This document shows positions 61,061-61,309 of a DNA stretch of 64,000 nucleotides, one piece after another. The DNA is taken from assembly GCF_044324785.1 (NCBI RefSeq), contig NZ_CP172127.1; one strand, 5' to 3'. The notes under the pieces were generated by a model. It did no database searches, was not told the origin of the DNA, and saw only the letters and a list, made by a program, of their open reading frames with translations. The translations under genes were made by a program, and so were the position numbers. Origin of the DNA: Escherichia coli (GTDB lineage Bacteria > Pseudomonadota > Gammaproteobacteria > Enterobacterales > Enterobacteriaceae). The stretch's first letter is position 1, and every line of letters starts with the position of its first letter.

Positions 61061-61159
61061 TGAATAAAACCACGAGTTCCAGGTGTGCCTTATTCAGCAC
61101 TGCTAGTGCGAATTTAATAATTTACGGTTTTTATGGGATTTTAGGGATAAACACAAGAA

Positions 61160-61234
61160 TGGTGTCCCCTGCAGGAATCGAACCTGCAATTAGCCCTTAG
61201 GAGGGGCTCGTTATATCCATTTAACTAAGAGGAC
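61160..61234 (-). tRNA. argW: tRNA-Arg (anticodon CCU)
   Basis: rc GTCCTCTTAGTTAAATGGATATAACGAGCCCCTCCTAAGGGCTAATTGCAGGTTCGATTCCTGCAGGGGACACCA, 75 nt. Confidence 0.93.
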
Positions 61235-61309
61235 AATGCGGCATGAGTATACCCGCTAATGGACTGCGGGGTAAGTACACTGCCGCTCGATTGCTTAAAC
61301 CCTCGCCAT

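Follow-up and report, generated by a model that had tools for sequence, protein, structure and literature searches.

The junction between dsdC and yfdC in the window (the whole 64,000-nt stretch of Escherichia coli DNA analysed here, to which all coordinates refer) is very probably an unoccupied argW attachment site (attB) of tyrosine integrases of the IntS/KplE1-HK620-Kapi1 type, with both argW and the dsdCXA genes intact. An empty argW site had been proposed in the original prediction, and this was supported by the presence of a single att core, chromosomal flanks on both sides and the lack of any element sequence. Because the core is found once and its flanks are purely chromosomal, no element appears to be integrated; this call rests on one assembly, which would miss a prophage carried by only a fraction of the sequenced cells. 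Integrases of this type recombine a phage attP with a 16–17-nt core lying over the last 15 nt of argW; the core is thereby duplicated, and the integrated element comes to lie between argW and dsdC, which is the situation in K-12. The site is presumed to be still able to accept such an integration.

The window carries the gene order emrKY-dsdA-dsdX-dsdC-argW-yfdC-mlaA, which is the native chromosomal order. The intact dsdC gene (60125..61060, plus strand) encodes a 311-aa LysR-type activator of dsdXA and ends with a TAA stop codon at 61058-61060. It is followed by a 99-bp spacer (61061..61159), which forms the B-side flank of attB and is referred to below as the 99-bp allele, and by argW (61160..61234, minus strand), a 75-nt tRNA-Arg(CCU) gene that was placed by ARAGORN (CCT anticodon) with its CCA end at 61160. 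The predicted distance of 99 bp between the dsdC stop at 61060 and the argW 3′ end at 61160 is exact according to the ORF and the ARAGORN placement. The argW region scored 63.4 bits with the Rfam tRNA model (RF00005), and its alignment with K-12 argW revealed 0 differences inside the tRNA. On the 5′ side of argW, a 75-bp spacer (61235..61309, minus strand), presumably containing the argW promoter, separates the tRNA gene from the conserved flanking gene yfdC (61310..62242, minus strand), which encodes a 310-aa inner-membrane protein of the formate/nitrite transporter family. YfdC shares 99.0% identity with K-12 YfdC (tblastn), and this allele is ubiquitous, as 80,674 blocks in the assembly collection list the exact protein.

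The dsdC and dsdXA genes are divergently arranged, and the locus is collinear with that of K-12. The dsdX gene (58570..59907, minus strand) encodes an intact 445-aa D-serine transporter, and dsdA (57221..58552, minus strand) encodes an intact 443-aa D-serine ammonia-lyase. In tblastn comparisons with K-12, DsdC and DsdX were 99.0 and 99.3% identical over their full lengths, respectively, and DsdA was identical to K-12 DsdA at 438 of 442 positions, with one additional C-terminal residue. All three proteins exceed the NCBIfam equivalog cut-offs over their full lengths (DsdC, NF007491, 596.8 bits against a cut-off of 316; DsdX, NF007395, 940 bits against 618; and DsdA, TIGR02035, 812.8 bits against 368), far enough to bear out the predicted intactness of the module. 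The strain has thus kept its complete D-serine catabolism module. This module has been tied in the literature to niche preference: many uropathogenic and Crohn's-associated strains carry it, and most strains of the O157 type have it in disrupted form. In the O157:H7-type state, dsdC and part of dsdX are replaced by cscRAKB (PMC4366372). The window does not have this csc-replaced state, with dsdC and dsdX both intact, and csc-type neighbours (a LacY-type permease, a PfkB kinase and a GH32 hydrolase) are absent from it.

The annotated order in K-12 MG1655 is yfdC, argW, CPS-53, pawZ, dsdC, dsdX, dsdA and emrY, where the ‘cryptic prophage CPS-53’ extends from 2466369 to 2476583 (10.2 kb, intS through torI) and pawZ is a pseudogene that repeats 15 bp of the argW 3′ end. 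The K-12 prophage had been placed between argW and dsdC in the original prediction; the annotation from intS to torI agrees with this placement, and the contrary case, in which the K-12 prophage would not be at argW, was thus dismissed. In a three-way alignment, the window tracks the dsdC-side junction of K-12 up to the core and the argW-side junction from the core onward, and it therefore corresponds to the two outer flanks of K-12 joined at one copy of the core ATGGTGTCCCCTGCAG. This 16-nt att core (61159..61174) comprises the last 15 nt of argW and one flanking base. Its reverse complement, CTGCAGGGGACACCAT, is the 16-nt core found duplicated in KplE1 (Panis et al. 2010, PMC2951348), and the 17-bp att sequence of Kapi1, AATGGTGTCCCCTGCAG (Pick et al. 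2022, PMC8787464), exactly matches positions 61158..61174. CPS-53/KplE1 in K-12 thus shares the tRNA gene (100% identical), the 16-nt core and the outer flanks with the window, but K-12 contains two core copies, one of which is pawZ, bracketing 10.2 kb of DNA, whereas the window contains a single copy and no such DNA. The outer flanks on the yfdC and dsdC sides show approximately 97.8-97.9% identity to those of K-12. The yfdC-argW spacer differs from its K-12 counterpart at 2 positions, and the dsdC-argW spacer (99 bp in the window versus 95 bp in K-12) is collinear with it besides 4 bp of indels.

Among 5,426 complete RefSeq E. coli genomes, the contiguous dsdC-argW-yfdC arrangement (60900-61400 in one piece) was identified in 910 (17%), including NEBExpress; these matches were required to cover at least 80% in one place, with pieces no more than 750 bp apart being joined, so that a few genomes with very small insertions could be included in the count. 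In 1,863 of the complete genomes (34%), argW adjoins an intS-type integrase gene, and the remainder carry other contents at argW. The PGAP annotations of 19KM1831 and NEBExpress list dsdC, tRNA-Arg and yfdC with nothing in between. The closest complete genome for the 501-bp stretch 60900-61400 is 19KM1831 (98.6% identical), and an exact match to this stretch was found only in a draft assembly. NEBExpress is empty like the window but carries the 95-bp spacer allele, and its identity to the window over 60900-61400 is 96.4%. The 99-bp allele was found in 19KM1831 (empty) and ST131 (occupied), and the 95-bp allele in NEBExpress (empty) and in K-12 and O145 (both occupied); in these genomes, spacer length appears as ordinary allelic variation that is uncoupled from occupancy. 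The P4-like element at argW in ST131 is joined after 61178. In other assemblies, P22-like prophages, P4-type integrases, a phage encoding a protein of ~2,790 aa and genes with Pfam families fitting the csc sucrose genes were found beside yfdC/argW. Together with the phage in O145 and the Kapi1-like phage, integrative island and P4-like satellite described below, these elements agree with the earlier statement that other lineages carry different islands at argW, and the frameshifted dsdA of O145 and the csc replacement reported in PMC4366372 agree with its addition that dsdCXA is sometimes damaged. The empty argW state is accordingly common, ordinary and previously described.

The GTDB species representatives were scanned twice with exact patterns for the empty arrangement outside E. 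coli; the first scan gave no match, and the second gave one 486-bp contig of a Terrisporobacter assembly. This contig (NZ_JAHZMP010000156.1, 0.8x coverage, from the assembly of Terrisporobacter mayombei DSM 6539) is 96% identical to 61129-61614 and contains argW-yfdC with the empty-site junction; it almost certainly stems from contamination of that assembly with E. coli DNA.

In the assembly collection, 435 blocks list the exact DsdC protein of the window; occupancy in the lineage of the window was tabulated from the 24 contigs read with this exact allele. The site was empty, with yfdC directly following, in 15 of these 24 contigs. An integrative island encoding CbeA, RadC, an antirestriction protein and a DUF932 protein was present in six, a phage with 97% identity to Kapi1 across the aligned part of its excisionase end in two, and a P4-like satellite in one. 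One of the empty contigs, from the draft assembly GCA_042853285.1, matches the window with 100.000% identity along 6,876 nt. In the nine occupied contigs, the flank from dsdA to the core is 99.98-100% identical to the window up to 61174-61182. The contigs with the Kapi1-like phage diverge from the window right after 61174, that with the P4-like satellite diverges at 61175, although an imperfect match continues briefly to 61179, and those with the island diverge after 61178. Other islands use a 20-nt shared segment (61159..61178). As flanks that are nearly identical to one another adjoin an empty site in some contigs and an element in others, the site is a live hotspot in the lineage of the window, and the occupied sisters provide the strongest indication that its attB is probably usable. 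The proposal that the window could serve as a baseline for defining island boundaries was also borne out by these sisters, which diverge just past the core. Because most contigs are empty and the occupied ones contain three unrelated elements, we favour the empty state as the background state of this lineage.

If the site were instead a degraded remnant of an old integration, marked by part of a duplicated att, by an integrase pseudogene or by a small scar, the baseline would not be clean. The 4 bp of spacer indels relative to K-12 are the sole candidate for such a remnant, but the 99-bp allele is common to the empty 19KM1831 and the occupied ST131, which marks them as ordinary allelic variation. 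The att core is present in one copy in the 64-kb window even when three mismatches are allowed, and the duplicated 16-nt core bracketing an element, by which CPS-53 is defined, is thus not seen. No argW-like fragment was detected in either spacer, the local alignment scores being at or below the mean of shuffled sequence, and the same was true of argW aligned with the neighbouring coding sequence. Searches for direct and inverted repeats in 59000-63500 yielded just short matches at chance level. IntS, TorI and 11 other CPS-53 proteins had no tblastn match anywhere in the 64-kb window, and the interiors of CPS-53 and of five further elements borne at argW had no blastn match in it; these negative results uphold the claim that the site has no integrase or phage genes. 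When the interiors of the six elements were compared with the site by short-word blastn, one 16-nt identity to the T-arm of argW was obtained in addition to chance-like short matches. This identity is not a scar, because it lies inside argW itself and reflects the phage sequence rather than that of the window. In 61061-61309, which spans 249 bp including the 75-nt tRNA, there is also no room for an integrase coding remnant. A partial att duplication or integrase remnant in this interval, which the original prediction had named as evidence against itself, was looked for and neither was found, and the alignment with the argW region of K-12 located the 16-nt core, with no prophage-derived direct repeat being found. 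A degraded remnant is therefore extremely improbable.

An assembly artefact, in which a repeat-flanked prophage was collapsed out or contigs were misjoined at the tRNA gene, is scarcely more credible. Prophages flanked by tRNA sequences and having repeated ends can break short-read assemblies, and the locus of a Kapi1 lysogen was reported to be split over contigs (PMC8787464), but a repeat of 16-20 nt is too short to collapse an element of 10-40 kb. Furthermore, the independent assembly GCA_042853285.1 is identical across the junction, and the same junction is present in the 910 complete genomes. Within the favoured explanation of an unoccupied attB, the empty state may be derived, a recent occupant such as a Kapi1- or HK620-like prophage having been precisely excised. 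Sister contigs with 100% identical dsdA-dsdC-spacer sequences carry a Kapi1-like prophage starting exactly at 61174, KplE1 is excisable in vivo (PMC2951348), and the finding of each spacer allele in both empty and occupied genomes is indicative of repeated gain and loss. However, the empty majority among the contigs with the same DsdC fits an empty background with three independent gains, and precise excision is scarless, so that the sequence offers no positive evidence for it. Never-occupied and precisely vacated sites have the same sequence, because conservative site-specific recombination leaves no scar. We thus consider recent excision possible but rather unlikely. A related and equally tentative suggestion is that the lineage of the window switches argW occupancy on a very short timescale and that the site here could be a freshly vacated attB. 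It derives from flanks that are 99.98-100% identical over ~4 kb and yet adjoin either an empty site or one of three unrelated elements. If this doubtful reading were true, the lineage would constitute a natural near-isogenic series for determining integration and excision rates at a tRNA hotspot.

The unoccupied attB of the window closely resembles a described one. The prophage-free strain KP7 has an empty dsdC - tRNA-Arg - yfdC arrangement, which is the attB of Kapi1 (PMC8787464). This arrangement and the 17-bp att sequence are like those of the window, although the strain background is different, and a Kapi1-like prophage (97% identical over the aligned part) resides at argW in sister assemblies of the window. 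Integration of Kapi1 was shown experimentally in the KP7 work, whereas the window is known from sequence alone and is likened to KP7 by description. The argW-dsdCXA region was described as a variable genetic island (Moritz & Welch 2006, J Clin Microbiol 44:4038, as cited in PMC4366372, PMC13054288 and PMC8787464), and argW is regarded in these three papers as a hypervariable hotspot of recombination and integration whose contents differ between pathotypes. Relative to the island of Moritz & Welch, as it is presented in the citing papers, the window represents the same locus in a minimal state, with no island, one copy of dsdCXA and no csc replacement. Knowledge of argW as an integration hotspot is unchanged by this site. 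Its practical use lies in the exact reference boundaries that it provides for argW-integrated elements in related genomes, namely the 3′ core at 61159..61174, extending up to 61178 for some islands, and an inferred second site at 61208..61234.

This second site consists of the 5′ 27 nt of argW (61208..61234, minus strand) and is a putative att core of a phage type that would integrate on the yfdC side; it was deduced from two genomes, with one junction each. In O145 RM9154-C1, an integrase gene and phage genes directly follow the tRNA 5′ end, and dsdA is frameshifted in this genome. In strain 144, argW beside yfdC is reduced to its 5′ 27 nt, with the match beginning at 61208, and these 27 nt abut a phage gene that encodes a very large protein with an LPD38 domain. 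It is likely from these junctions that the segment serves as a second, independent attachment site of a different phage type. It is present as a single copy in the window at up to three mismatches.

The 16-nt T-arm segment of argW (61174..61189, GGAATCGAACCTGCAA) adjoins the att core, and exact copies of it were found in CPS-53 and in the Kapi1-like prophage. These copies are located ~20 nt upstream of the torI/xis start codon and ~290 bp inside the element from attR; they have the same orientation as in the tRNA, and the identity extends no further. Either descent from an ancestral attP that contained more of the tRNA or chance (E about 1e-3, with the phage modules being homologous to one another) may account for the T-arm copy. 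More speculatively, the attP of KplE1- and Kapi1-type phages may once have included more of the tRNA sequence, which was later split by insertion of the excisionase gene.

In the two spacers, a scan for promoter and terminator consensus sequences gave no site at its thresholds. On the minus strand, 12-17 nt ahead of the tRNA 5′ end, there is a −10-like hexamer, TATACT (61246..61251), that could plausibly be the −10 element of the argW promoter. Rfam searches of the site at E<=1 returned just the tRNA and a sub-threshold antisense match mirroring it. Neither spacer has an unusual predicted RNA fold (z = -0.7 to -1.7), the z-scores for the dsdC-argW spacer being -0.7 and -0.8. The 99-bp allele contains a small perfect palindrome, GCACT-GCT-AGTGC (61097..61109), that is missing from the 95-bp allele of K-12; the whole 99-bp spacer folds no more stably than shuffled sequence. 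Three small ORFs overlapping the tRNA (61060..61200, plus strand; 61225..61350, minus strand; and 61259..61423, plus strand) are unannotated in RefSeq records with the same arrangement and were treated as spurious.

Several further differences from K-12 were found elsewhere in the window, which is 96.1-98.0% identical to K-12 across collinear blocks. An IS903-type (IS5-family) element of 1,057 bp (43456..44512), with 18-bp inverted repeats at its ends (GGCTTTGTTGAATAAATC) and a duplicated 9-bp target (CTTCAAGGA, 43447-43455 and 44513-44521), interrupts frc after codon 7. The frc gene encodes formyl-CoA transferase of oxalate catabolism, and its leftover ORF begins at a GTG codon and lacks the first 15 residues. 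At 16262..16672, ~410 bp with a small minus-strand ORF are present in place of the 4.6-kb xapR-xapB-xapA-yfeN region of K-12. Approximately 960 bp including yfeS are missing at 4525/4526, and the K-12 copy of IS186 between nupC and pdeA is missing at 22414..22425. The best identity among the 5,426 complete E. coli genomes was 99.7% for 4600-12100, 97.6% for 30000-50000 and 98.4% for 57000-63000, with different best-matching strains for the three segments. The lineage is thus a mosaic, and finished genomes represent it poorly.
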